DNA from: Porphyridium purpureum
Taxonomy: Eukaryota
Direction: 5' to 3'
DNA: 64,000 nt
Assembly (NCBI GenBank): GCA_008690995.1
Contig: VRMN01000001.1
Coordinates: 124,001 to 188,000, forward strand
Below, one piece after another: positions 2,933 through 45,088 of the stretch. Position numbers and translations under genes: made by a program. The number at the start of each line of letters is the position of its first letter. Within the stretch, counting starts at the first letter, position 1. Below the pieces are notes generated by a model, which saw only the letters and a list, made by a program, of their open reading frames with translations, was not told the DNA's origin and did no database searches.

Positions 2933-3826
2933 TGTTGGTACCGATGTACTTGTCTGCCGGAGGTAGGCGCTCCTGTGCGCGAGCGGGGAAATTTAGTTAT
3001 GGCGAGTTTGCGGCTTTTTGGGTGTAAAAGCGTGGTCTGGCGAGCGACCCGGCGGCAGCGTGACGGCAAATGGAGGAGGCCCCGGATTCAGGGAGTGAAA
3101 AGCGTAACTTTGCACTGTCAAGTATGAAGTTTTTGGTTTACTTCAGCGAACATTTCAGCAGTGAAAGAAGTGTTAACATAGTGGACTGCCGCAGCAATGT
3201 ACCGTGCGATACAGTGTACACCAATCGGGCGGGAGCATAGCTCAAGCAGTAGAGGAATACGTCCTCCTCGATGGCCAATGGAGTGGTGCGGCGATCGAGC
3301 TCACGCGAACGTGCTGTCCGTGGGCGTGTGAGGGATGTGGCAGTGCCGCAGTAACTAACAAATACAGCTTTATCGGTAGTCGATGAGCACGATCCAAGAA
3401 AACACTCCTTACCCGAAAGAGTGGGTCAGTGAGACCGTCCGCGCTCTCCGCCCGCTTATCGTCGCGGCGCGGTCCTCTACCCAAACTGTACACAACCACC
3501 AGGTGTACACCTAGTATGCGCAACACAAGCACGTAATGGCAGTACGAGATTGGGAAGCGGGGTTGGCGAATTCAGGACCGAAGGCGGTAGTCGAGCGACA
3601 TTCAGGATAGTGGCGGCCAATATGGTCTTTGACTTGAAGGCGAAGTAGAGAATGTAGAGCAGCACGGAAACTGCGATTCCTTTAGGATCTAGCTTAAAGG
3701 GAAACTCTCTTCCGTGGTGTGATAAAAAAGGGTGCTATTGTAAACAACAGAGTCTCTCATTTATTGGGCCTATTTGGTCAGTTGGAAGTGCACGTGGGTG
3801 CACGTGATCTCATACGCCCTTCTAAT
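2933..3826 (+). repeat. 5' LTR of the degenerate element, interrupted by a solo LTR of another family
   Basis: It ends immediately before the PBS-like motif. 3538-3826 is clearly similar to 11944-12265 (shared ACAGAGTCTCTCATTTATTGGGC..ATTTGGTCAGTTGGAAGTGCAC). The left boundary is approximate. Confidence 0.6.
3248..3525 (-). mobile_element. Solo LTR of the self-priming Copia family (28137-33995)
   Basis: The reverse complement aligns end-to-end with the 278-bp LTR at 28137-28414, with substitutions. Flanked by 5-bp TSD CAAGC (3243-3247, 3526-3530). Termini TGTTG...CTACT. Confidence 0.95.
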
Positions 3827-26300: not shown

Positions 26301-28021
26301 CAGCCAATGACTTCCGCGTTGGATCGCTCAATCAGCGCGACAAGTTTTTGCGCTTGCTCGATCGAGAGAGGCTGATGCACTGACGCTAGACCGTAATTCT
26401 GGGCCTGCCGCGATGTGTACTCGTCCATCTTCACGTTTGGTTCTCGGACACGAGAGAAAGCACCGATGAGCGGGCTTGAAAGTTGCATGAGACGCATGCC
26501 AATTGTTGGGCGGAGACTGGTGAATATTTCTTCCCTGTCCAGCAAGCCTAGCAGCACTCGGTACGCCGAAAGTATGTGTCGCTTGAGCTTTGCGTACGCG
26601 CCTTGCTGTTGGTGCGTACCGTTGCTGCTCAAACTGTTCGCGCCACTGATCATCTGATGTTCCGAAGCAGCAGTTGCATCGAACGCGCCCATGTCGCCCT
26701 GCTGGTGATCGTCGTTGGAAGTGCTGAGCTCCTGCGCGAGCTGCAGCTTGGACCACATTTCGTCGATCACCGCCAGGCATCCCGCTCGGGCATTTTCCTC
26801 AAAGTACGACTGGCGTTGGGTGGAGTCGGTAGAATTACCGACAAGATAAGAGTAGACGCGCTTGGACAAGTTCAGTTCCCTTCGGATCAACACAAGGAGT
26901 ACGCTTTTCAACAGCCTGATCTTGCGCGTCGTACAAGTGCCATCCAGTCGTGCACGCGCCGCTTCCTCTCCTGCTTTCGATGTCAGGACCGCTGTGTCTG
27001 TACTCTCTGGTCCACGCCCAGGTCCAAATAGTGATGTGCTGCCAATGTTGAGCTCCGAGCATGTCAGGAGAAGGTCGAGCGCCGCGCGTTGCGTGAGCGC
27101 ACCTTGATCCTCCCCAAGAGCGACTGAGAGAGCTGCAGCGACTAGTTCTGGATTCGACACCAACGCATTCTTGCGTACCTGACCGTTCGGCGTGGCCGCG
27201 GCGCTGCTTAAACTTGCGTGATACGTGTTCGCCTCCACGAGTGACCTCAGATAATTGCACGCGGTAAGACGGAGCGAGCCCGGCGCTGTTAGGATGACGT
27301 GCCACAGGGATTCAGTAAACAACGCATCGTCACTCAGAACGTCACGAAACTGCGCAAGCAGGTCGGAAGCCGCGAGGAAACACTCAGAACTCTCGTCGGT
27401 ATCCTCCAGCGCGGGCAGAAGCGCCTGTATAAAACCCGATGCAACCCCGCGCAACGGTTGCGCCCCCAGTGGTAGCAAATACTGTTCGTACAGAGCGATC
27501 AGAGGACGCTTGAGCGGCATGGCCCCGTACGAGAGCAATGGAAACAAGCCCGCGCAGTACTTGGGCAGGTCTTTCGCGAGCCTGCGCGGCCCAATCCGGC
27601 CGAACACGAGATGATACGTCTCGAGCGCCTTGAGATGCACGCCCGATGGCAGCGACGGCGTCAGGCACTGAGCAAGGCGCTTTGCCAGCAAGTTTTTCTC
27701 AGGAATGTATCCATACTGTGCCGCACTTGTCCCGTTTTCCGCGTGATTGCTTGCGGCGGCCGTCACGTTGCCTGCCTGATTCTGACTCGTTTCGTCCGCA
27801 GCTTCAACACTGCTGCTGGAGGCCGCAGGAGCAGGTGCCGCAGACGCGTGCTTGAGCAGGATGCGATTCACGCGCTGCAGGTCGTGAATCAAGTCGGCCC
27901 AGTCCTGGGCACGGTCAAACGCATGCAGCGCGTTCAGCAGCTCGGAACGCAGCAACGCATACTTTCCTCCGCGCACGCGGCCGCCGCGCTCCAGGACGCG
28001 CTCCTCCTCAGACGACTCCAT
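20309..28021 (-). CDS. DOP1: Dopey family protein (DOP1/PAD-1), endosome-Golgi trafficking
   Basis: 2570-aa intronless ORF. Dopey N-terminal signature 'FDRAQDWADLI...KRLAQCLTPSLPSGVHLKALETY...GLFPLL'. Confidence 0.93.
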   Translation of the reverse strand: MESSEEERVLERGGRVRGGKYALLRSELLNALHAFDRAQDWADLIHDLQRVNRILLKHASAAPAPAASSSSVEAADETSQNQAGNVTAAASNHAENGTSAAQYGYIPEKNLLAKRLAQCLTPSLPSGVHLKALETYHLVFGRIGPRRLAKDLPKYCAGLFPLLSYGAMPLKRPLIALYEQYLLPLGAQPLRGVASGFIQALLPALEDTDESSECFLAASDLLAQFRDVLSDDALFTESLWHVILTAPGSLRLTACNYLRSLVEANTYHASLSSAAATPNGQVRKNALVSNPELVAAALSVALGEDQGALTQRAALDLLLTCSELNIGSTSLFGPGRGPESTDTAVLTSKAGEEAARARLDGTCTTRKIRLLKSVLLVLIRRELNLSKRVYSYLVGNSTDSTQRQSYFEENARAGCLAVIDEMWSKLQLAQELSTSNDDHQQGDMGAFDATAASEHQMISGANSLSSNGTHQQQGAYAKLKRHILSAYRVLLGLLDREEIFTSLRPTIGMRLMQLSSPLIGAFSRVREPNVKMDEYTSRQAQNYGLASVHQPLSIEQAQKLVALIERSNAEVIGCIGNDAFYADLCKYMLHTQTLAESQSSFFSVVLLALQTLPLNSREAQLDWIPSLLATCAGFYERVLMRDDGSADSQEGIDLTRALDTHTDVALHGWMQVTILLLSALSRAENKRCTTLFMRSAVQIATVFWIWLYMRVRVERVCSDMRPLNQASESFEAESHSHQTQDQTIADAGVGRGASDDLGLSGQASDLQVSVALAGTSIISGLLLRATASLGTVKDASALDDSSFALMTLVRLVLICANRCVVSSSLGIVFAGLRTLIDVSRYVPRERREKVKKEPLSELFALMDGSAPALQKHSVSDAFCIRMGKLIGMRSGFELDQSENILYLSGDASRVDMDQRVMQRLGLLIAFDASEAPESIEMGLIRPCICRAWRLLHPSRASANAACAELWLGLERSFTDAAHALVADGILADASSGKRLFSVDSANAKPALASARLQNLQCLASLWDLSIEHHLLMSVATSDALLCLFLDAASSGSGSSNGLQICNKENLSVCAFVQTWLARMMRFAPGTLLDPLFRLLLLPARVYSEQPELTSAFASESFDVARSQYAIQRIRDLVSLHAVGAATGPPANAALFGTADGFGQAAAGSLSPILSQSSNMNGMNASPLTTTGRGGGDRMDGLMELLFEPTSTMESLLRAKCSVEVSMSLSALYDNFKKSSTRSSGAGGAQSHIHEDLRVQELKLRKLALTNFVEDGDGGGTYLHAILIVAFECIGHYVLIQLAVMAQTSVAQSADEKERDDPSDIMLRPSKSKLRALAIMAAELLAKLFSAASSSLVSSWSSSVASAQQVRAHIAQAFLQNLFYSIALDDKMLQKHLLDALESFFWVSSLARAHERGPSAAGDDGESHASQVGSTGGGHLTPELPPQSQASDSFAATLAPCVWHGLRNACVFRHDADGAYGDAFVSRWTQFCLLTIRMCSWNHGVGVGFSDVFDVTFLPQLVFGSLHILGGELMESVERPVQGSTCSNLTILRSVRQVIIGAMSTNATLSSLSGRLSLQAENGATLLTHQDKSASSAAAGQPNYSGSAGRSAFEYIEGLMRDTFISSSSSGHSDRLLGQMTGAISKQIARDVHCTVFALMPRLVECFAHAWIPARVASVSSMYDAFFWMLDEHGNQNVQHPQLRDHRQRLQQVAPRAQLAAQGHRGRAFILSTLNSFGVLYPSDLMFVLVHVWWRVHARFLTLPLGIMNGCISVDEAQSARARMIKYQTIQEYVLDIVLKCGRFPGSPVLASGSVGAAVIAHPLHALAMIVHVCMSVNEGAQEVREASKWMRTLSKSCLDGFMSLFQNVENSPRSPARRRKGDHGSEFMRASELNLNGALGFLPRMQTFAEEPGTATGSGGRFNPGAGSASMSQPTSSVIQAAATAKYAYLSAAGSVPAADDLAFMDLAIGTCQAANALIGTLSLLTQVIDFCASSSTASSNESLFQQQISSAVPVLLTCCRAVISESTNAGAQICTVRLLSSIVRCSGSAADGSDRRMKKEIAALATQALASCSSLIAGNMTISSTDLENAAQSIRALRTPSESGEAHETPDRQQLTLHFGVMALAVARAHAVELLDVAQQEDRVSAISMLQSLLSVCASRIKTGTRGLLSAVEPSSVSVCVSAVAYAMDLITILSRKDWSAKLARREVFGLLEDTALLVALSKHRALQTHVGRLISQVVAVERASLSVIAASMPNGLGSSATSGGGSSSSTNSSTRDQSQASGERSMIVAGGRSGTATTVSLGAVSSAIGSSIGKALMLGSSDLDLSAVVKTVCRMVYVLYFAGNQHGSRGFDEQTPFVLERLRDLFRIGHARITQAALLCARVLLIRSSSVAFSPIKASIVSELFRILEAPQRSYIESIAALRFLRLARALCSHDFNYELCFFLIDKAPGSTSVASDPGSPADNAQGIMPLVTRIALGPELGEDAARAPWVRAFELGGSDAASSGTGPEPERAKGQDHSAGEEDAVAMYTLAGMLQRLHEDPYMSARVRESDFESEILFEMTALNRWSLERT

Positions 28022-28136
28022 GAATCACCGCGCGCGGCGCCCGACGCGACCCTGCGCGCGCGCGCGTATTCTGTGACCTGCCGCCGGGTCCACAAGGTCC
28101 CAGCGGTCGGCGAATCGCTCAATAGGCGTGTGGCAC

Positions 28137-28414
28137 TGTAGTGTACACTGGGTGTACACCTCGTGGCTGTGTACAGTATGGGTAGAGGAGCGCGCCGCGA
28201 TTGTAAGCGGCCGGAGAGCGTGGACGGTCTCACTAGCCCGCTCTTTCGGGTAAGGAGTGTTTTCTTGGAGCGTGCTCGTCGACTACCAGTAAAGCTGTGT
28301 TTGTTGGTTACTGCGGCACTGCCACACCCTTCACGCGCACACGAACAGCGCGTACGCGTGAGCTCGATCGCCGCACCACTCCGTTGGCCATCGAGGAGGA
28401 CGTATTCCTCTACT
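28137..28414 (+). repeat. 5' LTR (TGTAG...CTACT)
   Basis: Direct repeat of 33718-33995. Confidence 0.97.
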
Positions 28415-28429
28415 CACGCTCCAAGAAAA
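28415..28429 (+). promoter_or_regulatory. Primer-binding site complementary to the element's own LTR (28260-28274)
   Basis: CACGCTCCAAGAAAA abuts the LTR end and is the exact reverse complement of TTTTCTTGGAGCGTG. It has no TGG start (complement of tRNA CCA). Confidence 0.85.
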
Positions 28430-28462
28430 TCTGAGAGTCTGCGACACCGGTGACAAACGAGA

Positions 28463-29572
28463 ATGTCACGTGTCGGACAAAGCGGCGCAGGCCGTTCGCC
28501 GCACCCACGCGAAGCCGGTCTTGTAGAGACACTTCCGCTGCTCACTTACGACAGCACGCGTGTGGTGCCGGCCGCGGTGGTAGTTTGGGTCGAGGAGCTC
28601 GGCAACTACTGCAAGAAGGAATACGGCGCTATCGGCACAGCGTTTGCGATAGAGCGCCAAGGACGCGTGTACCCCACCTTGCCGACGATCCCGCAAGCAA
28701 CCCCAGGGCTCGGGGAGGCGGGACGGGAGGATTGGTACAGCGCCACCGTCGCCAAGGAAGAGCTCAAGCTGGCGCTCGCGGCGCGCTCGGACGCGATACG
28801 CAAGGACAAGGAAACTCGCGTGCGCGTGTTTGGACTCATCATGGGCCAACTGAGCCGCGCATCTAAGGAAGCGCTGGCCGTAAAGCCCGGCTGGAGTCAA
28901 CTCGTACGAGAATCGGACGATCCGCTGCAGCTTCTCGAGCGCGTGATCGAGGCGCACCTGACCCGTGGCTACGACGACCCGCTGCGTAACCAGCAGTATG
29001 CTCGCATGTCGTACGATCAACTGAGAGTTGGAGCAGACGAATCACTTGTTTCGTTCAAGACGCGCTTCAAGGCAGCGGTGATGGCCCTTGAAGCCGTGGG
29101 CGAACCAGTGCCGTCTTCCGAGCGCTGCGCGGCTGACTTTATCCTAAAGCTTGAAGGTACGCGCTGGGACGAAGCCGTACGCAAGTGCAACAACGAGCAC
29201 CGACGGTTCGACACGGTCGACCAGGCAATGTCTTTCATGGCGCAGTTCGCGTACGCGAAACAACCGGTACAGGGTCGCACTTGGCGGACGGACACCGAAC
29301 ACCCAGAAGACGAGGACACAGATGATGTGGAGCTCGCAGCAGCACCACGCGTACGCGAATGCTACAACTGCGGCGCGGATGATCATCTCCTTCGCGACTG
29401 CCACGCGCGACCGCTGGACAGCGGAATGGCCGATAGGATGCGCGCGGCGAAGGAGAGGCAGGCGCGCATGGCGAGGCGCGACACGCGCGGACGCGGGCCG
29501 GTGCTGGCCGGGGCGACGGAGCAACAGCTGCGGGCCGCACTTGACGCGTTGAAAAGGAACGCCGATGCATGA
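28463..29572 (+). CDS. gag: Copia Gag with CCHC zinc knuckle
   Basis: 369 aa; 'CYNCGADDHLLRDC' knuckle; ends in TGA in frame with pol. Confidence 0.93.
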   Translation: MSRVGQSGAGRSPHPREAGLVETLPLLTYDSTRVVPAAVVVWVEELGNYCKKEYGAIGTAFAIERQGRVYPTLPTIPQATPGLGEAGREDWYSATVAKEELKLALAARSDAIRKDKETRVRVFGLIMGQLSRASKEALAVKPGWSQLVRESDDPLQLLERVIEAHLTRGYDDPLRNQQYARMSYDQLRVGADESLVSFKTRFKAAVMALEAVGEPVPSSERCAADFILKLEGTRWDEAVRKCNNEHRRFDTVDQAMSFMAQFAYAKQPVQGRTWRTDTEHPEDEDTDDVELAAAPRVRECYNCGADDHLLRDCHARPLDSGMADRMRAAKERQARMARRDTRGRGPVLAGATEQQLRAALDALKRNADA

Positions 29573-32500
29573 CGGTGTGCGACGTGGCCCACGGGCTTCG
29601 GTGACGAGATACCTTTGGGTCTCGACACCTGCTCGGGTGTTCACGTCATGAAGGATAAGGGGTTAGTCCATCGGGTAAAGAAAATTGACGAGTATTTGCT
29701 GCTGTCCGGAATTGACGCGCGGGCGAGCGAGCTGGCCATCGGGCACGGCGGTGAGACGGCCTTCGGCATGGCGTACGTCAACGAGAACCTTGCAGGCAAC
29801 GTGCTGTCTATGACCAAGCTGGTCGCGGAAGGGCATGATGTACGCTTCGACGCGGATGAGAACCGCTTCCGCGTACGCGTGCCGAACTCCAAGCGCTGGC
29901 TGGTCTTCGCGCCCGATGCACACGGAATGTACACTGCGATGATACGGCGTGCAGATCTCGTGCACACGACGGGCCCAGCATACAAGAAGGCAGCCACGAA
30001 TAAGGACAACCGGAACAGCTGCCGGGCCGGTCCATCGTCTGCCAAGGCTTGGACCTCAAGCACAATCACGACGGTCGCCAGCAACCTTGCCCGATGCACG
30101 GTACGCGAGGTTGAACGCGCACGCGCCGCTCGCTCTCTGCAGGCGAGGCTGGGATTCCCATCCTTTGGTGTGCTGAAGCGCATGCTTCAGCGCGGGGACA
30201 TAAGCAACTGTGACGTCACGTCGGCGGACCTCGAGCGTGCGAATGCAATCTGGGGCACTCCACTGCCGTGTGTGAAGGGAAAGACAACGGGACACGCGAC
30301 ACCGAGGCTGTCTGAAACGGTCACCACTGGTCCCAAAGCGCGCCAGGTGATGCACTCCGACCTGATGTTCATCTCGAAGGTGCCTTTCCTCGTGTCGGTC
30401 TTGAAACCGAGTCAATACATCCTGGCCACCGAGCTGAAGCGGAAGGACGCGCCTTCGGTGCGCGCGGCGGTGCAGCGGCGGTTGAACGAGGCCCGCGGGC
30501 ATGGAGTGCAGATACCTGAGATTCGGTTCGACCGTGAAAGCGCAGTCCTGTCGCTCTGGATCGAGTTGATGGAGGCCGGCATCCTGCCCGAGCTAACCGC
30601 GGCAGACGAGGTGGTGCCCGCCGCTGAGCGAGCGATTCGCCTTCTAAAGGAAAGGGTCCGCACATTGTCGTACGACCTGCCGTACACCATGCCATTATGC
30701 ATGCTGCCGGGAGCCGTGGAGTTCTCTCGACAGAGACTGAACATGGTGACGAGCGAGGCCTCCGACGCGGGCGAACCGGCGCACGCCATCTACTTTGGTC
30801 GTAAAGTAGACGCGAAGACGGACCTACGTGCTCCATTCGGGGCGTATGTCCAGGCACATACAGCGTCCGTGGACAGCACGATGAGGCCCAGAACGTTGGG
30901 CTGCCTCACCCTGCATTCCGCCGAGAATGCTGCGGGAAGCTGGGTGCTCATGAATCTGAACACACTGAAGCCCATCGTCAGACAGGTGTGGACAGAGCTC
31001 CCGGTACCGGACCACCTGATCACGTACGTAAATGCGCTCCCAACCGTGGCAGGCATCGACGATGGCGATCAGGACCTCGGCCGCACGGAGGTGGAACTCT
31101 CGCAGGAGGAAGACAAAGAGACGGCGGAGGTCGAGGCGGCGCTGAAAAACGGCGGGCCGGTCGACGAGCCAGCGGCGGAGGGGCACACGTATCTGGACCA
31201 GCCAGAAGACGCGGTACTGCGTGAACAGGCGCAGACTCCGACACACGCCGACACCGATCACCCCGCACCGGCGGGCGCCGACGTGCTGAGTAAGGATGAG
31301 TCACCGTCCACTCCCACGCAGTTGCGCATGGAAGAGATGCGACGTGCAGCGGATTCACTCTTCGAGGCGGGGCGAGCAATGACGCCAACGACTGCGGAAG
31401 CGACCGGCGAGGGTCTGCCAAGCACGGACGCAGTACTGCCGGAGCCGCTTATCGTGGCAGAATCTGTGGAAACCCATGTGCCCGAGGAAGAGGCGTCGAC
31501 TGATCCACCCGCTACTGCCGCACGGCCGCACGGCGACGCCACAATCACCAGTCCGGACGCTTCAGACGGCGAAGCGGCCTTGACCCCCTCGGTCGCCGAG
31601 GTGACAATGGAACAGGCCAAAGCGCGGGTGGAAGCAATTGAAGAGAAGCTGCGAGCGCTGGAGGAACGTGAGGCGCGTCTGCTGAGTCAGATGACCACGG
31701 AGCCATCGTACGCGGACGCCGTCCGAAATGCGGTACCGCGCACGAGCGAAGCCGAGCATGCCCGCGCCGTCAGCTCTCCGCGTCGGACACGGAAGCGGAA
31801 AGCAGAAGGGACATTCCCGGACGTCGAGCGCGAAAAGAATGAGCGGCTATCGCGCCGCGAGAAGGAACGCCTGCGTGTACGGCGCGCGCCGGAGGTCGTG
31901 GTCGCCCTGAAACGAGAGGCGGAGGACTTGCTATCTTCTGCGATGCCGGGAAAGCGCAGACACAAAACGCTGAGGATCGGCGTACGCCAGGCGATACGCC
32001 AATACGGTATGGAAGGACTCAAGGCGATTGTCGCTGAGCTGTTGCAGCTGTCCAAGCACGGTCTGGACGTGCTGGAGCCGGTCCACGTGCACACGCTCAC
32101 GAAGAAACAACGAGACGGGATCATACCGTCGTTCATGTTCGTGAAGGAGAAGCACGATGCTTCAGGCGCCTTGGAGAAAATCAAAGCACGAATGGTGGCC
32201 GGCGGGAACGAGCAAGATCGATCGGAGTACTCCGACTGTTCGTCCCCCACGGTGGCGACCGAGGCTATTTTCTTACTGGCAGCCGAGGCAGCGAGAAGCG
32301 GTGCCGCAGTCGCCACGATTGATTTCCCCGGGGCATTTCTCAACGCAAGCATCCCCGACAGCGACCCACACACGTACGTGAGGATCAACAGAAACCTGAC
32401 CGGGCTGCTCGCCGCCGTAGATAAGCGCATGAAGCAGTTCGTCAAGAACGGTGTTCTGGTCTGCAGGTTGAAGCGCCCGTTGTATGGATGCATCGATGCG

Positions 32501-33631
32501 TCCAAGCGTTGGTATGACCACCTCTGCGAAATGTTGAGCGAGCTCGGATTCGAACAGAATGCTTACGACGCTTGTGTCTTGCGGAAAGTCTCCCGTACGG
32601 GCGAGCCTTCCGTCACAGCGCTTGTGCACGTGGACGACGTGAAGCTGATCGCAGAAAGCGAGCAAGCGATTGATGAAGTGGTGGCGCGCGTACGCGAAAG
32701 GTTTCCGTCGCTGCAGGAGCACCGAGGGCGCACACACAGCTACCTGGGGATGGAGTTTGACTATACCTCCCCGGGGGTGGTGCGCATCGGGATGGGCGGG
32801 TTTGTAGACTCTTTACTGCGAGAGAATGACGTACGCGGTACCGCAGACACGCCCGCTCAAGCCGGGTTGTTCGTGGATGACGAGTCGCAGTTACTGACGT
32901 CGCACGACAAGGAGGCGTTCCACAGCGCCACCGCAAAGGTACTATACCTCGCGAAGCGCATACGCCCGGACCTGCTCACTGCGGTAGCGTTTCTGGCTAC
33001 GCGAGTACAGGCCCCGGGCGAGAATGACCGCGCGAAGCTGACCCGCCTGCTGAGGTACCTCAACAAGACGCGAGACATGAGGCTGGAGCTGGGCACGGGT
33101 TGGGTTGCAGACGAGCGCGAGCCCGATTGCGCGAGCCATGCGGAGCCGCACGTAGAGTGCTATGTCGACGCCTCATTCGCGACACATGCGAACATGAGGA
33201 GCCACACGGGTGGCGTTGTGAGCCTGGGCCGCGGCGCGGCGTACGCCACCAGTGTCAAGCAGAAGCTCAACACAAAGAGCTCCACCGAAGCGGAACTGGT
33301 GGGCGTGAGCGATGTGATCGGGCAAGCGATATGGACGCGGAACTTCCTCGAGGCGCAGGGCATCCGCACAGCTGGCGTACGCCTACACCAGGACAACGAG
33401 GCGACCATGTCTCTCCTTGCACACGGTCGGGCGACCTCGCGTAGGTCGCGCCACATCGCGATCAAACACTTCTTCACGCACGATCTGCTGAAGAGGCGAG
33501 TCGCGACGATGGTACATTGTAGCACCGAGGTCATGATCGCGGACCTGCTGACCAAACCGCTGCAGGGAAAGAGGTTCGCACACCTCCGTGATATGATCCT
33601 CGGGCGTGCGCCGACAGCGCAAGAACCGTAG
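29573..33631 (+). CDS. pol: Copia Pol (protease-integrase-RT-RNase H), in frame with gag after one TGA
   Basis: PR 'GLDTCSGVHV'; INT 'MHSDLMF..IRFDRES..AERAIR'; RT 'KIKARMVAGG..IDFPGAFL..PLYG..HVDD'; RH 'YVDASFA..KSSTEAELV..QDN..IADLLTKPL'. Open from 29573 to the stop at 33631. Confidence 0.95.
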   Translation, partial: RCATWPTGFGDEIPLGLDTCSGVHVMKDKGLVHRVKKIDEYLLLSGIDARASELAIGHGGETAFGMAYVNENLAGNVLSMTKLVAEGHDVRFDADENRFRVRVPNSKRWLVFAPDAHGMYTAMIRRADLVHTTGPAYKKAATNKDNRNSCRAGPSSAKAWTSSTITTVASNLARCTVREVERARAARSLQARLGFPSFGVLKRMLQRGDISNCDVTSADLERANAIWGTPLPCVKGKTTGHATPRLSETVTTGPKARQVMHSDLMFISKVPFLVSVLKPSQYILATELKRKDAPSVRAAVQRRLNEARGHGVQIPEIRFDRESAVLSLWIELMEAGILPELTAADEVVPAAERAIRLLKERVRTLSYDLPYTMPLCMLPGAVEFSRQRLNMVTSEASDAGEPAHAIYFGRKVDAKTDLRAPFGAYVQAHTASVDSTMRPRTLGCLTLHSAENAAGSWVLMNLNTLKPIVRQVWTELPVPDHLITYVNALPTVAGIDDGDQDLGRTEVELSQEEDKETAEVEAALKNGGPVDEPAAEGHTYLDQPEDAVLREQAQTPTHADTDHPAPAGADVLSKDESPSTPTQLRMEEMRRAADSLFEAGRAMTPTTAEATGEGLPSTDAVLPEPLIVAESVETHVPEEEASTDPPATAARPHGDATITSPDASDGEAALTPSVAEVTMEQAKARVEAIEEKLRALEEREARLLSQMTTEPSYADAVRNAVPRTSEAEHARAVSSPRRTRKRKAEGTFPDVEREKNERLSRREKERLRVRRAPEVVVALKREAEDLLSSAMPGKRRHKTLRIGVRQAIRQYGMEGLKAIVAELLQLSKHGLDVLEPVHVHTLTKKQRDGIIPSFMFVKEKHDASGALEKIKARMVAGGNEQDRSEYSDCSSPTVATEAIFLLAAEAARSGAAVATIDFPGAFLNASIPDSDPHTYVRINRNLTGLLAAVDKRMKQFVKNGVLVCRLKRPLYGCIDASKRWYDHLCEMLSELGFEQNAYDACVLRKVSRTGEPSVTALVHVDDVKLIAESEQAIDEVVARVRERFPSLQEHRGRTHSYLGMEFDYTSPGVVRIGMGGFVDSLLRENDVRGTADTPAQAGLFVDDESQLLTSHDKEAFHSATAKVLYLAKRIRPDLLTAVAFLATRVQAPGENDRAKLTRLLRYLNKTRDMRLELGTGWVADEREPDCASHAEPHVECYVDASFATHANMRSHTGGVVSLGRGAAYATSVKQKLNTKSSTEAELVGVSDVIGQAIWTRNFLEAQGIRTAGVRLHQDNEATMSLLAHGRATSRRSRHIAIKHFFTHDLLKRRVATMVHCSTEVMIADLLTKPLQGKRFAHLRDMILGRAPTAQEP

Positions 33632-33717
33632 GGCGTACGCATCGTCTCGTGTGACTCGCTTCGCCGTCGGGTGGCTTGTGTGGAGCGGGTGGTAGCTTCC
33701 ATCGCGGCGAAGGAGTG

Positions 33718-33995
33718 TGTAGTGTACACTGGGTGTACACCTCGTGGCTGTGTACAGTATGGGTAGAGGAGCGCGCCGCGATTGTAAGCGGCCGGAGAGC
33801 GTGGACGGTCTCACTAGCCCGCTCTTTCGGGTAAGGAGTGTTTTCTTGGAGCGTGCTCGTCGACTACCAGTAAAGCTGTGTTTGTTGGTTACTGCGGCAC
33901 TGCCACACCCTTCACGCGCACACGAACAGCGCGTACGCGTGAGCTCGATCGCCGCACCACTCCGTTGGCCATCGAGGAGGACGTATTCCTCTACT
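33718..33995 (+). repeat. 3' LTR
   Basis: Identical to 28137-28414; preceded by purine-rich GAAGGAGTG (putative PPT). Confidence 0.97.
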
Positions 33996-34210
33996 GGCAC
34001 TTTCGTCCTTGGTGTCCAGGTACAGCCGTCACACACAAGTAGAAGCGGGAGACGCAGAGAAGTTTATGGAAAGGAGCAAATGGACCTGGCCAGACGAGGC
34101 AGACCGACGTTTGATTTCGTCCACACCGCTCCGGCGGAAGCGCCGCACAGTGGGCTGAAACAAAAGGATACGTGCTTGTTCGCTGTCCCGCGTGACATGG
34201 GGCTCGCGTG

Positions 34211-40495: not shown

Positions 40496-43400
40496 ATGGA
40501 CGACCGTGAGCAGGAGCAGTCACGTCTGCGCGCAATTATGGCAGCGAGACAGCAATCGTTGGAACCACAACCTCTGCAGCAGGGTGGAGGTACGCAAGGC
40601 AATGCACAGGCTGGTCCATCGCCGACCGAGTTTGACATGTTGATGGCCAGGGTGAGAGCGGAATTATCCGCCGACTTACGCATGGCACAGCAGCGCATTG
40701 AGGGTCTGGAGAGCGATTTGGCGCACGAAAGAGCAGCGCGATCGGCTTTGGCGTCCGCGGGCGCGGGGCAGGTGGTTCATCAGCGGGGAAAGTTGCTTGA
40801 ACCTGCACGTATGCCGGCGTATGACGGGAAAAGAGACCTAGTAAAGATCCTGACGTGGATTTCGGCGGCTCGCGACCGAGTGATTGAGCCGTACAAGGAC
40901 GAAGTCGCGGCGGTTGGCGAATCTTGGGACGACGCAGCCGAAAAGAGGGTCGTTCGAAACCTCGCTGGGTTCCTGACGGATGACGCGCAGTTGTGGTGGA
41001 TTCGCCTGAGGGAGCAGCCGTTCACGGTTGAAGCATTTCTAGCCGCGCTCGAGATGCGGTTCGCCCCGGTGAACCCAGGCGCTCGGGCTAGAGATGAGCT
41101 GTTCGCGTTGGAGCAGAATAGCACGAGCGTGGAAGAGTATACAAATACTTTCTCCTCGCTCTGTCTGCGCATTGAAGACGCCACAGAGTCTGAATTGTTC
41201 GACAAGTACAAGCGAGGGCTTGACAAGGACATTAGGGTGCAAACCGAACTTAAGGGCACATCCAGCTTGGAAGAAGTTATCCGCGTAGCTTCGGAGATCG
41301 ATGCCATCATGCACCCGGAACGCGCCCGGACTGCCAAGAAAGGGCAGACGCCCTACGGGGACGGACCGGCTCCCATGGAGCTGGGCTCCGCTGAGCGCGG
41401 CGGGAAAAGCGTAGGTGCTGGCAGCGGCGGTAAAAGAAAGAGTGGTCGAAAGAAGTGGAAGGCTCGGGACAGCGGGAGGAGAGATGGTCTGAAAAAGGAT
41501 CAATGCGCCAACTGCAAACGCATAGGGCATTGGAAAAAGGATTGCCCGGAGCTCGCCGCACAGGCGGCTGAGCTGGAACTACTCACTGCGAGCACCAGAC
41601 CAAAAGTCGAGAGGCTTGTGAAGAGAAAAATGTGGGTGAATGGTCACCAAGTCGACGCAGTGTTTGATACAGGCGCGACGAACACATATGCTTCGCTCGC
41701 TTTCTGTGAGAAAATTGGTGTGGCGGTGGACCGGCGCGCTGCCGTGGGAGGAGTTCGCTTGGCGGATGGTACCATGTGCAGGCCCGAAGGGACCGCGCGC
41801 CTGACGTTGAGAATGCATGGGGCTCGGGATGCAAAGTTGTCCGCGGTGGTACACAGAGCGCGTCACGAGCTCATAGTGGGCCTGGACTGGCTGAGGGCGC
41901 AGAAGGCGCATTTGTCCGTGGGAGGCATGGAACTACTCAGCACGGATGCGGAGAAAATCAATGAGAAGCCCAATGAGCCAATTAGAGCCACAGAGCCGGT
42001 GAGGGTTCTGGACCACGACCTTTTGCATATGCCTGCGAAGGAAGATTGTGGGATTTGTGCCCTGGGCAAAATACAGAGAGTGCGCGCGGTGCGTCGCAAA
42101 GAGAGTGACTCCAATGCAATCATCGACTTTAATGAGGCCGTCTCCATTGATCTCGTGGACCCCTCCTCGGTTGGTGTGGATGGGACGAGATGGGTTCTGG
42201 TACACAAAGACATCGGAACGGGCTGGGTCTCTGTGACGGGCCTGAGGAATAAACTCGCCGACACGGCCTCGTTCGCGTTTCGAGAGATACAGCGGGGCCG
42301 CGGTTGGCCTCGGCTGGTGAAAAGCGATGGCGGCGGAGAATTTGGAGGTGTTTTCGAAGACATGCTCCGAGACCACCTGGTTGCCCACGAAAAGGGCATA
42401 GCGAGGCGTTCAAACACGCATGCCAGTCAAGAGAGGCTTCACAGGGACATGAATGCGACGGTGAGGGCGCTTCTAATCCAGTCCGGGTTGCCATCGTCAT
42501 GGTTCTGCTTCGCGGCTCGGTATTGGGCGGATGCTCGAAATCTCGTTTGGGCTGGGCGCGGAGGCGGTACCACCGCGTACGAGAAACGATTCAATACTAA
42601 ATGGAAATTGGAGCTGCCTGCGTTTGGCCGGGGCGTCGTAGTTTACGACGAGGCTTCCGACAAGAATGAACCGAAGGGCTCTGTCGCAATCGTGGTCGGT
42701 TTTCGGATACCAGAATCAGCAGTCATCAAACAACGACTGAATTGCCTGGTGATCCCTGTTTCAGATATGAGGCCGGCAGCGGCGCGATGGGTACAAGAAT
42801 GGAAACTGCTCAAAGAAAAGTATCCCGTCGTAAGAAAACAGCTCAGGCCCGTTGAAGAAGAATTCGCCCGCCCGCCGGACCCTAAACCAGTTGCTGACGA
42901 CGAGGGGCAGCAGTACCCTGGAAGCGGTAGGAATGATAAGAGCGACGAGACCGGCGAGACCTCGGAAACCGAGCCGCCGGCCGACTCAAGAGAGAAAAGT
43001 AATGAGATAGAAACAGGTTTCAAAGAATGCGTACGTGCAAGCGAAACAGAAGCGCCTCCGATGGGGCCGCTCGCGACAGTAGACGGTCGATCGCGAAAGG
43101 GCTCGTGGAGCAGCGAGCAAATTGCGGCTATTTCGGGCGGCTTCACACGACTGGGTCCAAAGTGGTCGCAAATTATCAAAGAGAGTAAGGCCGCCTTGGC
43201 TGGTAAAACAGCGAAAGACGTGCGCTCGAAAGCGCAGGCGCTCGGATTGCTCGGCTCACAAGCCCAAGGTCTTGGCGAACACAGGCGCGGGAGGAGCGGG
43301 GCCTTGCGGCGCGCGAGGGTGAAGTTCGTAGAAGTTGCGGAAAAAGGGGTGTCGGCGCGGGCAGAGAAGGTCAGCGTGCCTCTTGCCGGAGCGACGGCCT

Positions 43401-45088
43401 TAGTTCAAGAGCTGCTGGTAACGCAGGTGATCGAATCCAAGAGTGCCATGGCCTCGAGTGCCGGTCGCGATGCTTTTGTCCGCGAGTTGACCGCGTTGAG
43501 AAGCGTCGGCGCGCTTCCGCTGGAGAAAGCGGTCGAGCGCAGAACGGCGACGCGAACGCCGCACGCACAGTTTGTGAAGCTGAAGGCCGTGTTCGGAATC
43601 AAAAATGCCGAACTAGGGCCCAGCGCGTGGAAACACAAGTGCCGACTTGTGTGTCAAGGGTGCGTGGTTAGAGACGCAACCGGAACCCTGGTTGTGAACC
43701 CATTTGATTGGGAGAAGCCGCCTGGTTTAGTAGCCATCAGGGCCGCATTAAGCGCAGCGCTGTTGGAGCACGGAGAACAGGCTGACGCTGCGTTCTTCGA
43801 CGTGGACAACGCATACGTACACGCGCCCCTCGGGGGTCCTCCGACATTCGTCGAATTAGCCGGTCTTACTCGCTGGTTGAGAGGTTGCATACCGTCCAGT
43901 CTGTCGTCAAAGCTCGAAGCCATGGAGAGGCCCGTCGTCAGGCTGCCCATGGCGCTGTATGGCTTGCCACGCAGCGGAAGCGACTTTGGAGCTCACGCAC
44001 GGTCAAGACTTGAAGGTCTGGGTTGGAAAGAATCCGCCTCAGATAAGAACGTATACTGGAGAAAGCGAATGGGTAAGACGGAATGGACAGTCCTATACGT
44101 TGATGATGGGGCGGTTTTCGGTGACAGTGGGGCAATACGGGAGGCGGTTGCGGAGATGAAAAAGGAGTTCTCTATCACCCGCGCGATTGAATACATGCGC
44201 GAAGCGACAAAAGAAAACCCTGTGCGGTTCCTGGGCATCGGGTTCTATGTCGACAAAGACATGGACGGTGCCTGGGTGATGAGTTCACGAGAGTATGCAC
44301 GGCATATGCTAGCAGACGGTCAAGAGAGGCAGGCGCGAAAGACTCCGATGTCTTGTAAACCTGAGCCCGACAGAGATGGCGAGGTCTGTGACAAGAGCGT
44401 GAGACGCACCTTGGGGCGTATTTTGTGGCTGGTTCGGACAACCAGGCCAGATCTGGCATTCGCAGTTGGTACGGTAGCGCGCTGCACGGATCGCTGGGGT
44501 GAAGAAGCCGAAAAGGGCCTGAACGACATCATGCGGTACCTGCAGGGCAGTGCCGATGCGGTGTTGGTGTTTCGCGTGCCACCTCTTTCGGGTGCCGGCA
44601 GGGCCTTGCCTGTGTCTGTATCTTGTTATACTGACGCAGACTTCAGCGCAGAGAGGTCGACTAGCGGCGTGTGCACTTTCTTTGTTGGTAAGAATACGAG
44701 ACACCTTGTGGACTGGTCAAGTGGGCGGCAACGCCGGACCGCGACCTCAACCGCCGAGGCGGAACTGATCGCTGCACATACAGCAGTGCAGTATCGTGTC
44801 TTTCCGCTGGGCGTGTTTATCGAAGAATGGCACAATGTATGGCCAAAGGTGGCCATGTATGTCGACAATGAGACCGCGCTAAACGCGATCAACAAGGGAT
44901 GGAGTGACAAGATGTTGCATCTTCACAAGATGCAGAAAATCAGCCTGAAATGGCTGAACGAAGTGTCCAAGGACGGCCTGGCAGACTTCGTGCACGTGAA
45001 CAGCAAAGACAATCTTGCAGACGGTTTGACGAAGAATCTCGCAGTCGACTCGTTCCAAAAGCAACGCCATGGTTGGTGCGTCGTCTGA
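40496..45088 (+). CDS. Gag-Pol polyprotein: retrotransposon Gag, CCHC, aspartic protease, integrase, Myb/SANT, RT, RNase H
   Basis: Gag 'FLTDDAQLWW..SVEEYTNTF..KYKRGL..GPAPMELG'; CANCKRIGHWKKDC; PR 'AVFDTGATNTY..IVGLDWL'; INT 'HDLLHMPAKEDCGIC..SIDLV..KSDGGGEF..SQERLHR'; Myb 43094-43252; RT 'KCRLVCQG..DVDNAY..LYGL..LYVDD'; RH 'YTDADF..STAEAEL..VDN..NLADGLTK'. Confidence 0.96.
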   Translation: MDDREQEQSRLRAIMAARQQSLEPQPLQQGGGTQGNAQAGPSPTEFDMLMARVRAELSADLRMAQQRIEGLESDLAHERAARSALASAGAGQVVHQRGKLLEPARMPAYDGKRDLVKILTWISAARDRVIEPYKDEVAAVGESWDDAAEKRVVRNLAGFLTDDAQLWWIRLREQPFTVEAFLAALEMRFAPVNPGARARDELFALEQNSTSVEEYTNTFSSLCLRIEDATESELFDKYKRGLDKDIRVQTELKGTSSLEEVIRVASEIDAIMHPERARTAKKGQTPYGDGPAPMELGSAERGGKSVGAGSGGKRKSGRKKWKARDSGRRDGLKKDQCANCKRIGHWKKDCPELAAQAAELELLTASTRPKVERLVKRKMWVNGHQVDAVFDTGATNTYASLAFCEKIGVAVDRRAAVGGVRLADGTMCRPEGTARLTLRMHGARDAKLSAVVHRARHELIVGLDWLRAQKAHLSVGGMELLSTDAEKINEKPNEPIRATEPVRVLDHDLLHMPAKEDCGICALGKIQRVRAVRRKESDSNAIIDFNEAVSIDLVDPSSVGVDGTRWVLVHKDIGTGWVSVTGLRNKLADTASFAFREIQRGRGWPRLVKSDGGGEFGGVFEDMLRDHLVAHEKGIARRSNTHASQERLHRDMNATVRALLIQSGLPSSWFCFAARYWADARNLVWAGRGGGTTAYEKRFNTKWKLELPAFGRGVVVYDEASDKNEPKGSVAIVVGFRIPESAVIKQRLNCLVIPVSDMRPAAARWVQEWKLLKEKYPVVRKQLRPVEEEFARPPDPKPVADDEGQQYPGSGRNDKSDETGETSETEPPADSREKSNEIETGFKECVRASETEAPPMGPLATVDGRSRKGSWSSEQIAAISGGFTRLGPKWSQIIKESKAALAGKTAKDVRSKAQALGLLGSQAQGLGEHRRGRSGALRRARVKFVEVAEKGVSARAEKVSVPLAGATALVQELLVTQVIESKSAMASSAGRDAFVRELTALRSVGALPLEKAVERRTATRTPHAQFVKLKAVFGIKNAELGPSAWKHKCRLVCQGCVVRDATGTLVVNPFDWEKPPGLVAIRAALSAALLEHGEQADAAFFDVDNAYVHAPLGGPPTFVELAGLTRWLRGCIPSSLSSKLEAMERPVVRLPMALYGLPRSGSDFGAHARSRLEGLGWKESASDKNVYWRKRMGKTEWTVLYVDDGAVFGDSGAIREAVAEMKKEFSITRAIEYMREATKENPVRFLGIGFYVDKDMDGAWVMSSREYARHMLADGQERQARKTPMSCKPEPDRDGEVCDKSVRRTLGRILWLVRTTRPDLAFAVGTVARCTDRWGEEAEKGLNDIMRYLQGSADAVLVFRVPPLSGAGRALPVSVSCYTDADFSAERSTSGVCTFFVGKNTRHLVDWSSGRQRRTATSTAEAELIAAHTAVQYRVFPLGVFIEEWHNVWPKVAMYVDNETALNAINKGWSDKMLHLHKMQKISLKWLNEVSKDGLADFVHVNSKDNLADGLTKNLAVDSFQKQRHGWCVV

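Follow-up and report, generated by a model that had tools for sequence, protein, structure and literature searches.

How does a retrotransposon express its enzymes when the gag gene in front of them ends in a stop codon and the pol region continues behind it in the same frame? The question is raised by a complete Ty1/copia-type long terminal repeat (LTR) retrotransposon of the red alga Porphyridium purpureum. The element occupies positions 28137–33995 of the window analysed here, a 64,000-nucleotide stretch of contig VRMN01000001.1 (assembly GCA_008690995.1, positions 124,001 to 188,000 of the forward strand). Gag must far exceed Pol in retroelements, and how each lineage brings this about is a classic question of recoding. 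From the sequence of the locus, we consider that Gag-Pol is probably made by programmed ribosomal readthrough of the in-frame UGA, a view that we hold with little more than even confidence. At the UGA, translation would end for most ribosomes, with Gag as the product. In a small fraction, a near-cognate amino acid would be inserted there, aided by the 3′ CGG and a hairpin, and these ribosomes would go on into the protease, integrase, reverse transcriptase (RT), and RNase H. Since termination would be the fate of most ribosomes, Gag would outnumber Gag-Pol, and the protease would then cleave the Gag-Pol fusion.

Between the ATG at 28463 and the TAG at 33629–33631, a frame of 1723 positions, the TGA at 29570–29572 is the sole internal stop. 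It closes a gag of 369 amino acids (28463–29572), and the open stretch behind it (29573–33628, 1352 codons) stays in the gag frame. The immediate context of the stop, at 29567–29581, is GCA TGA CGG TGT GCG. The pol region contains a Copia-type RT (Pfam RVT_2, E = 4e-18, 66.3 bits, cut-off 31.6), and gag carries a CCHC zinc knuckle that scores just below the threshold of its family (zf-CCHC, E = 0.0018, 18.7 bits, cut-off 20.8). The domain order, with integrase ahead of RT, is that of Ty1/copia elements, and a retropepsin-like fold lies at pol residues 10–130. The stretch between this fold and RVT_2 aligns with proteins named ‘Integrase catalytic domain-containing’. The Pfam integrase core (rve) was matched neither by pol nor by the protease and integrase pieces searched separately; the protease piece gave no Pfam match, and the integrase piece gave only gag_pre-integrs at E = 0.13. 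By eye, the His/Cys zinc-finger residues of the integrase region (30011–31100) look degenerate, and this region aligns well with integrase-named relatives. The D, D, and E residues and the ADLLTKPL end of pol are features that we take to be hallmarks.

In the absence of a Pfam match to a protease or integrase core, the identity of the protease was tested separately by alignment and structure. The six-residue motif LDTCSG is encoded at 29621–29638, and its aspartate, Asp18 of pol, is invariant in all 22 aligned relatives, where it is one of four invariant positions among pol residues 1–146. An AlphaFold model of the protease domain, built on the 22-relative alignment, has a mean predicted local distance difference test score (pLDDT) of 86.7. 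Each of the 50 matches listed by Foldseek against the PDB is either a retroviral protease or the Ddi1 domain that resembles one, with weak scores (best E = 3e-3, template-modelling (TM) scores of 0.4–0.5). In the VIA structure search, which works independently of Foldseek, the top ten matches are all of the retropepsin type (Z of 4.1–5.5), the best being equine infectious anaemia virus (EIAV) with a Z of 5.5 and a root-mean-square deviation of 3.1 Å over 72 residues. A VIA Z below 8 can reflect a common arrangement, and we rely on the concordance of both structure searches and on neither score alone.

The matched retropepsin-like range begins at pol residues 10–11, which are paired with residue 18 of human immunodeficiency virus 1 (HIV-1) protease, while the first methionine of pol is residue 26. 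Provided that this stretch is ungapped, Asp18 would fall on the catalytic aspartate of HIV-1 protease, which we take to be Asp25. With the start of the fold and the aspartate both upstream of the first in-frame ATG, a pol begun at that ATG (29648) would lack the catalytic strand. Two claims of a preliminary description of this DNA are thus borne out: gag, TGA, and pol share one frame, at coordinates that are all right, and the protease aspartate, invariant among the 22 relatives and part of a domain that models as retropepsin-like, lies ahead of the first in-frame ATG. The public annotation lists gag as a hypothetical CCHC protein and pol as a ‘Copia protein’ that starts from the ATG inside the protease, so the catalytic aspartate is lost from the pol models. 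The public proteins identical or nearly identical to those of the element bear P. purpureum names. The motif itself (29624–29632) reads Asp-Thr-Cys and not Asp-Thr/Ser-Gly, an unusual retropepsin active-site loop. Among the relatives, its third position is occupied by M, C, L, G, Q, or A, and Leu/Phe-Asp-Thr/Ser is retained.

Alphaviruses and several genera of plant viruses have UGA-CGG and UGA-CUA as their consensus contexts for stop-codon readthrough (Firth et al. 2011, PMC3159437). According to the same source, the pattern xxA-stop-CGx-xxx-xxG is invariant in 35 such plant-virus sequences, and a stem beginning 7–9 nucleotides past the stop boosts readthrough 3- to 14-fold (PMC3159437). The junction of the red-algal element, GCA-UGA-CGG-UGU-GCG, agrees with this type-II motif at every letter, and the leaky-stop context named in the preliminary description accords with the published one. 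After a spacer of 8 nucleotides, a hairpin is predicted at 29581–29647, with −35.5 kcal/mol in the longer folded pieces. The 80 nucleotides past the stop have a z of −2.57 (equal stability is reached by only 6 of 500 dinucleotide-shuffled sequences), and they form the fourth most stable of 255 windows along the element. The stem suggested earlier, GGUGU.CGA paired with UCGACACC, does occur in the minimum-energy fold of a 66-nucleotide piece (−26.4 kcal/mol, z = −1.9), but longer pieces favour the hairpin at 29581–29647. The folding methods used predict simple stems and not pseudoknots. We regard the evidence from the predicted hairpin as supportive but not strong.

The viral type-II signals are found in plant viruses (tobra-, peclu-, furo-, and pomoviruses) and alphaviruses, in replicase or coat-extension genes. 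Their stems have at least 12 bp and loops of ~100 nucleotides and are backed by covariation and mutagenesis, whereas the hairpin predicted here is a compact 67 nucleotides and comes from a single sequence. Murine leukaemia virus (MuLV) offers another likeness, as its gag ends in an in-frame stop that is read through at ~5%, with the protease encoded just after the stop (cited in PMC2194720 and PMC3159437). The red-algal element likewise has an in-frame gag stop with the protease right behind it; MuLV differs in being a retrovirus that uses UAG and a pseudoknot and has another order of pol domains.

The closest known arrangement is that of Tca2 (pCal), a Ty1/copia element of Candida albicans with an in-frame UGA between gag and pol, whose Pol is translated from a full-length gag-UGA-pol RNA (PMC2194720). 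The preliminary description, which gave one open reading frame (ORF), splicing, or frameshifting as the usual Copia strategies, left this precedent out. Tca2 is the only well-studied Copia element with an in-frame UGA, its bypass mechanism being unresolved (PMC2194720). Both elements are of the Copia type, with gag and pol in the same frame, a single UGA, and a predicted RNA structure past an 8-nucleotide spacer. Tca2 has a purine-rich spacer and a proposed MuLV-type pseudoknot, whereas the red-algal element has a simple predicted hairpin behind UGA-CGG, and its spacer, CGGUGUGC, holds purines at four of eight positions and is thus not purine-rich as in the MuLV/Tca2-type signal. One element lives in a fungus and the other in a red alga, and the likeness between them is one of arrangement. 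A listing-level search for literature on Porphyridium purpureum copia retrotransposons or red-algal gag readthrough returned no paper on this element. A survey of recoding signals in LTR retrotransposons (Gao et al. 2003) may list further Copia elements with in-frame stops.

The element is present in sequencing runs under six organism labels, and conservation of the stop was examined in eight of these runs. Six near-identical contigs cover 29570–29572, from six runs with six organism labels, and all six retain the TGA together with the CGG. They represent at least four sequence variants, with zero to six other differences from the window copy. A sense codon at this position in other copies had been named as the observation that would refute a functional stop; none is seen, and the retention of the stop in every sampled near-identical copy means that it is not private to the window copy. 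Public proteins agree with this picture. Three distinct gag sequences of exactly 369 amino acids are annotated on at least four contigs, the pol cluster of the family has six members, and the four models examined all begin at the same methionine after the stop. Among public proteins of 947–3014 amino acids searched across the junction, we find no fused gag-pol of this family.

A selection test was made on the 63 displayed coding variant positions, with 23 and 68 further rows outside it, and with P obtained by resampling. In gag, 12 of 26 changes are synonymous against 7.4 expected, and in pol 17 of 37 against 11.2 (P ~0.04 for each); the synonymous excess is modest in both. Word depth in run X1 is 1073 for the junction contig and 70 for a contig that continues past an LTR end into DNA outside the element; word depth is no copy number, but the difference hints at multiple copies. 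The 3′ part of pol (32580–33683) forms a separate contig in this run with about four times the word depth of the rest (4608 versus 1073), and position 32609 is a branch point from which contigs, like RNA reads, lead into other sequence. Another, more abundant element or a chimeric form therefore seems to share the RT/RNase H end.

A wider set of relatives comes from a HMMER search with a gag-X-protease-integrase query, from which the best 150 of 2433 hits were taken. Besides this family, these hits contain eight gag-only sister clusters of 335–416 amino acids and 28–50% identity, six of which are named P. purpureum. The seven with a zinc knuckle end 49–79 residues past it, compared with 56 in this family; an acidic Ser/Thr-rich tail is common to five of the eight; and for two of the eight, the annotated pol bears a neighbouring accession number. 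The window itself contains none of the sister families: tblastn with 14 relatives matched only this element and, weakly, an RT at 43730–45076. Gag relatives were likewise absent from the viral contigs and genome contigs searched. We infer that the gag stop was inherited by a group of Porphyridium Copia families and would not be damage to the window copy.

Several observations weigh against a functional stop, beginning with the relatives. Sister family P0015 (1607 amino acids, three copies), 33–35% identical, is annotated as one fused gag-pol, with a junction ~10 residues shorter than that of this element, and the more distant relatives P0064 and P0091 are fused as well. Metagenome contigs yielded 44 relative loci, all of them distant at 23–35% identity save for a 32-residue fragment at 53%. 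In none of the 38 that could be parsed does an in-frame stop separate zinc knuckle and protease: the knuckle lies within the same ORF as the protease-integrase match in 18, 386–740 open codons without a canonical knuckle lie upstream in 6, the knuckle is in a different frame in 4, and 10 are too short or interrupted to judge. Some of the sister families could, moreover, use frameshifting or be independently broken. For these distributions taken together, the simplest reading would be that the lineage began single-frame and that the Porphyridium group later acquired a gag stop, which it has retained over a long divergence.

Other points of the same kind come from the element and its copies. Along the element, 22 of the 255 windows reach a z of −1.8 or below, and the six near-identical contigs show no variation at 29423–29694, hence none from which covariation in the hairpin could be read. 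RNA depth across 29446–29632 is below 1x, with 0.59x in the better run. A divergent contig (record 7 of run X12, record 15 of run X13) that stands outside the count of six also spans the stop; it is ~83% identical, with 71 differences and two 1-nucleotide gaps over 29454–29861 (408 nucleotides). A nonsense change at 28592, which turns a gag Glu codon into a stop, occurs in contigs of X12 and X15, and another at 30052, which does the same to a Trp codon of pol, occurs in contigs of X12, X13, and X15. Such decayed copies of the family, which come under the other organism labels, reach high depth, and since they exist in number, the persistence of the gag stop in many copies is no proof of function. 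Finally, when the local context of the Tca2 UGA was placed in a yeast reporter, it did not bring about readthrough (PMC2194720).

The decayed copies bear directly on the alternative that best survives, namely that the TGA is an old disabling mutation inherited by all sampled copies. The family would then be non-autonomous or dead, with enzymes supplied in trans and its own pol never translated. We judge this unlikely, if by no means negligible. It is favoured by the abundance, in some runs, of copies with the two extra nonsense changes and by the pol models of the family cluster, of which four out of six are truncated to 334–964 amino acids, and the fused family P0015 in the same genome could supply the enzymes. 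An open pol frame is no proof of selection here, as the identical LTRs leave no time for pol to decay. The preliminary description had taken the same identity as an argument against simple decay; the element is a recent insertion, as its identical LTRs show, but their identity says nothing of selection. Against a disabled family stand the lack of any stop-free version in the six runs or the protein collection and the distance of the only fused relative in the genome, which at 33–35% identity is probably too far removed to act on the LTR ends or RNA of this element. Independent damage would also not readily yield eight gag-only sister families that end in the same region. The modest synonymous excess in pol and the position of the stop in a textbook leaky context, followed by a predicted hairpin, point in the same direction.

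A second alternative is that ribosomes do not decode the stop at all, pol being reached through a splice, by termination and reinitiation, or from a non-AUG internal start (ACG at 29582, ACG at 29591, ATA at 29609, or TTG at 29615). Precedents for routes of this kind exist. Drosophila copia, Arabidopsis EVD, and barley BARE1 have one gag-pol frame and obtain extra Gag from a spliced or short RNA, so that in copia and EVD the Gag:Pol ratio is set by RNA processing (PMC5580714). These elements belong to the same superfamily and share the need for excess Gag, but for the element described here the problem is reversed, since its gag ends in a stop that has to be passed. The Tca2 junction, for its part, contained a minor internal promoter (PMC2194720).

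Two stranded RNA runs, analysed as raw reads, show that sense transcripts of the element are present, at a depth of 8–15x over gag and about tenfold lower from 29446 on, a drop that would be in line with a bypass. In run X22, sense depth falls from 7–15x over 28698–29445 to ~0.6–1.6x at 29446–30380 and then rises further 3′. The drop past 29446 could stem from reads that map from related families, from a bias due to structure, or from a short RNA for gag. Neither run reports a splice joint inside the element, at a depth below 1x over the junction that is far too low for this to count. By eye, the lone GT..AG pair around the stop that spares the protease strand spans 61 nucleotides, and such a splice would therefore not preserve the frame. 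An AUG at 29569–29571, which shares two bases with the stop, opens a frame of only 11 codons. In-frame near-cognate start codons are indeed present upstream of the aspartate; with the fold beginning at pol residues 10–11, starts at 29609 or 29615 would clip it. Altogether, we find a bypass of the stop improbable.

A third alternative, that the TGA is an artefact of sequencing or assembly or that UGA is decoded as an amino acid (selenocysteine or a changed code), we discount almost entirely. Nothing was found in its favour, contigs from six independent runs all have the same TGA, as do copies that were annotated separately, and this stop also closes 6 of the 13 further long ORFs listed for the window, one of them a Sel1-repeat ORF and another that of a second retroelement. 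TGA is an ordinary stop in the P. purpureum genome. A search of 28100–34050 for a selenocysteine insertion sequence (SECIS) gave no Rfam match at E up to 1, and no other RNA family lies above threshold there. A minus-strand match to ALIL stays below threshold (18.3 bits, cut-off 50) and is attributed to chance.

Table 1. Coordinates of the element, of its proposed readthrough region, and of the contigs that cover the gag stop (window positions).
Feature	Position	Strand	Remark
Left copy of the target-site duplication, GGCAC, 5 bp	28132..28136		Same 5 bases at the right flank
5′ LTR, 278 bp	28137..28414	+	100% identity with 33718–33995
Coding region of gag (369 codons), with zinc knuckle CYNCGADDHLLRDC (residues 300–313)	28463..29569	+	
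In-frame TGA at the end of gag, proposed readthrough site	29570..29572	+	Retained in 6/6 near-identical covering contigs
8-nt spacer CGGTGTGC, with CGG as the leaky-context codon	29573..29580	+	Motif from PMC3159437
Predicted RNA hairpin 3′ of the stop	29581..29647	+	−35.5 kcal/mol
pol region, 1352 codons in the gag frame, protease-integrase-RT-RNase H	29573..33628	+	TAG stop at 33629–33631
Invariant protease Asp codon (LDT motif)	29624..29626	+	22/22 aligned relatives
First in-frame ATG of pol, 8 codons past the Asp	29648..29650	+	Public pol annotation begins here
3′ LTR, 278 bp	33718..33995	+	100% identity with the 5′ LTR over 278 nt
Right copy of the target-site duplication, GGCAC	33996..34000		
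Contig of run X1	28386..32609		5 differences from the window copy, all listed elsewhere than the stop
Contig of run X8	28385..30306		3 differences from the window copy
Contig of run X12	29230..29938		3 differences from the window copy
Contig of run X13	28950..29938		3 differences, the same as in X12
Contig of run X15	29411..29575		0 differences from the window copy
Contig of run X16	28519..29659		6 differences from the window copy

The ends of the element depart from the common pattern. Its LTR termini are TGTAG...CTACT (28137–28141 and 33991–33995) instead of the usual TG...CA, and the sequence 3′ of the 5′ LTR, CACGCTCCAAGAAAA, lacks the common TGG start of a tRNA primer-binding site. The 64,000 nucleotides of the window contain no tRNA genes. 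Next to the element, on the minus strand, lies a 2570-codon ORF with a Dopey N-terminal domain, whose start codon is 115 bp away (28021–28137) with the element upstream, so that the insertion sits in the likely promoter region of this gene. A solo LTR-like copy on the minus strand at 3248–3527, with 89–90% identity to the LTR of the element over 268–280 nucleotides, suggests that a related element had inserted there at an earlier date.

A second retroelement, on the plus strand at 40496–45088, consists of a single open frame of 1530 codons that ends in TGA. Its product combines a Retrotrans_gag/Ty3-capsid-like gag with a zinc knuckle and an aspartyl protease, and RVT_2 is matched weakly. This element provides a single-frame contrast to the Copia element, to whose RT its own is only ~25% identical.

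A gag-UGA-pol arrangement is already known in this superfamily from Tca2. The novel aspects are that the host is a red alga, that the stop stands in a type-II context like that of viruses, and that there are hints of a gag stop common to a whole group of families. A bolder proposal, which we put forward tentatively and consider possible rather than probable, is that the whole Porphyridium Copia group swapped an ancestral single frame for a conserved gag stop and makes its Gag-Pol through readthrough in the style of plant viruses, with UGA-CGG followed by a hairpin. For annotation, the locus illustrates how public gene models divide such an element, giving a ‘hypothetical CCHC protein’ and, separately, a pol without its catalytic aspartate.

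If readthrough takes place at this stop, the UGA-CGG and stem signal of RNA viruses would be used by a retrotransposon. Copia elements are mostly single-frame, and a young, multi-copy red-algal family whose stop stands in a textbook leaky context would provide a second and possibly simpler test case for how the stop is passed. Were a gag stop shared and read through across the group, programmed readthrough would be reported for the first time from a red alga, and this would be a Copia case in which, unlike in Tca2, the local signal suffices; it would also make these families a tractable system for the evolution of recoding in retrotransposons.

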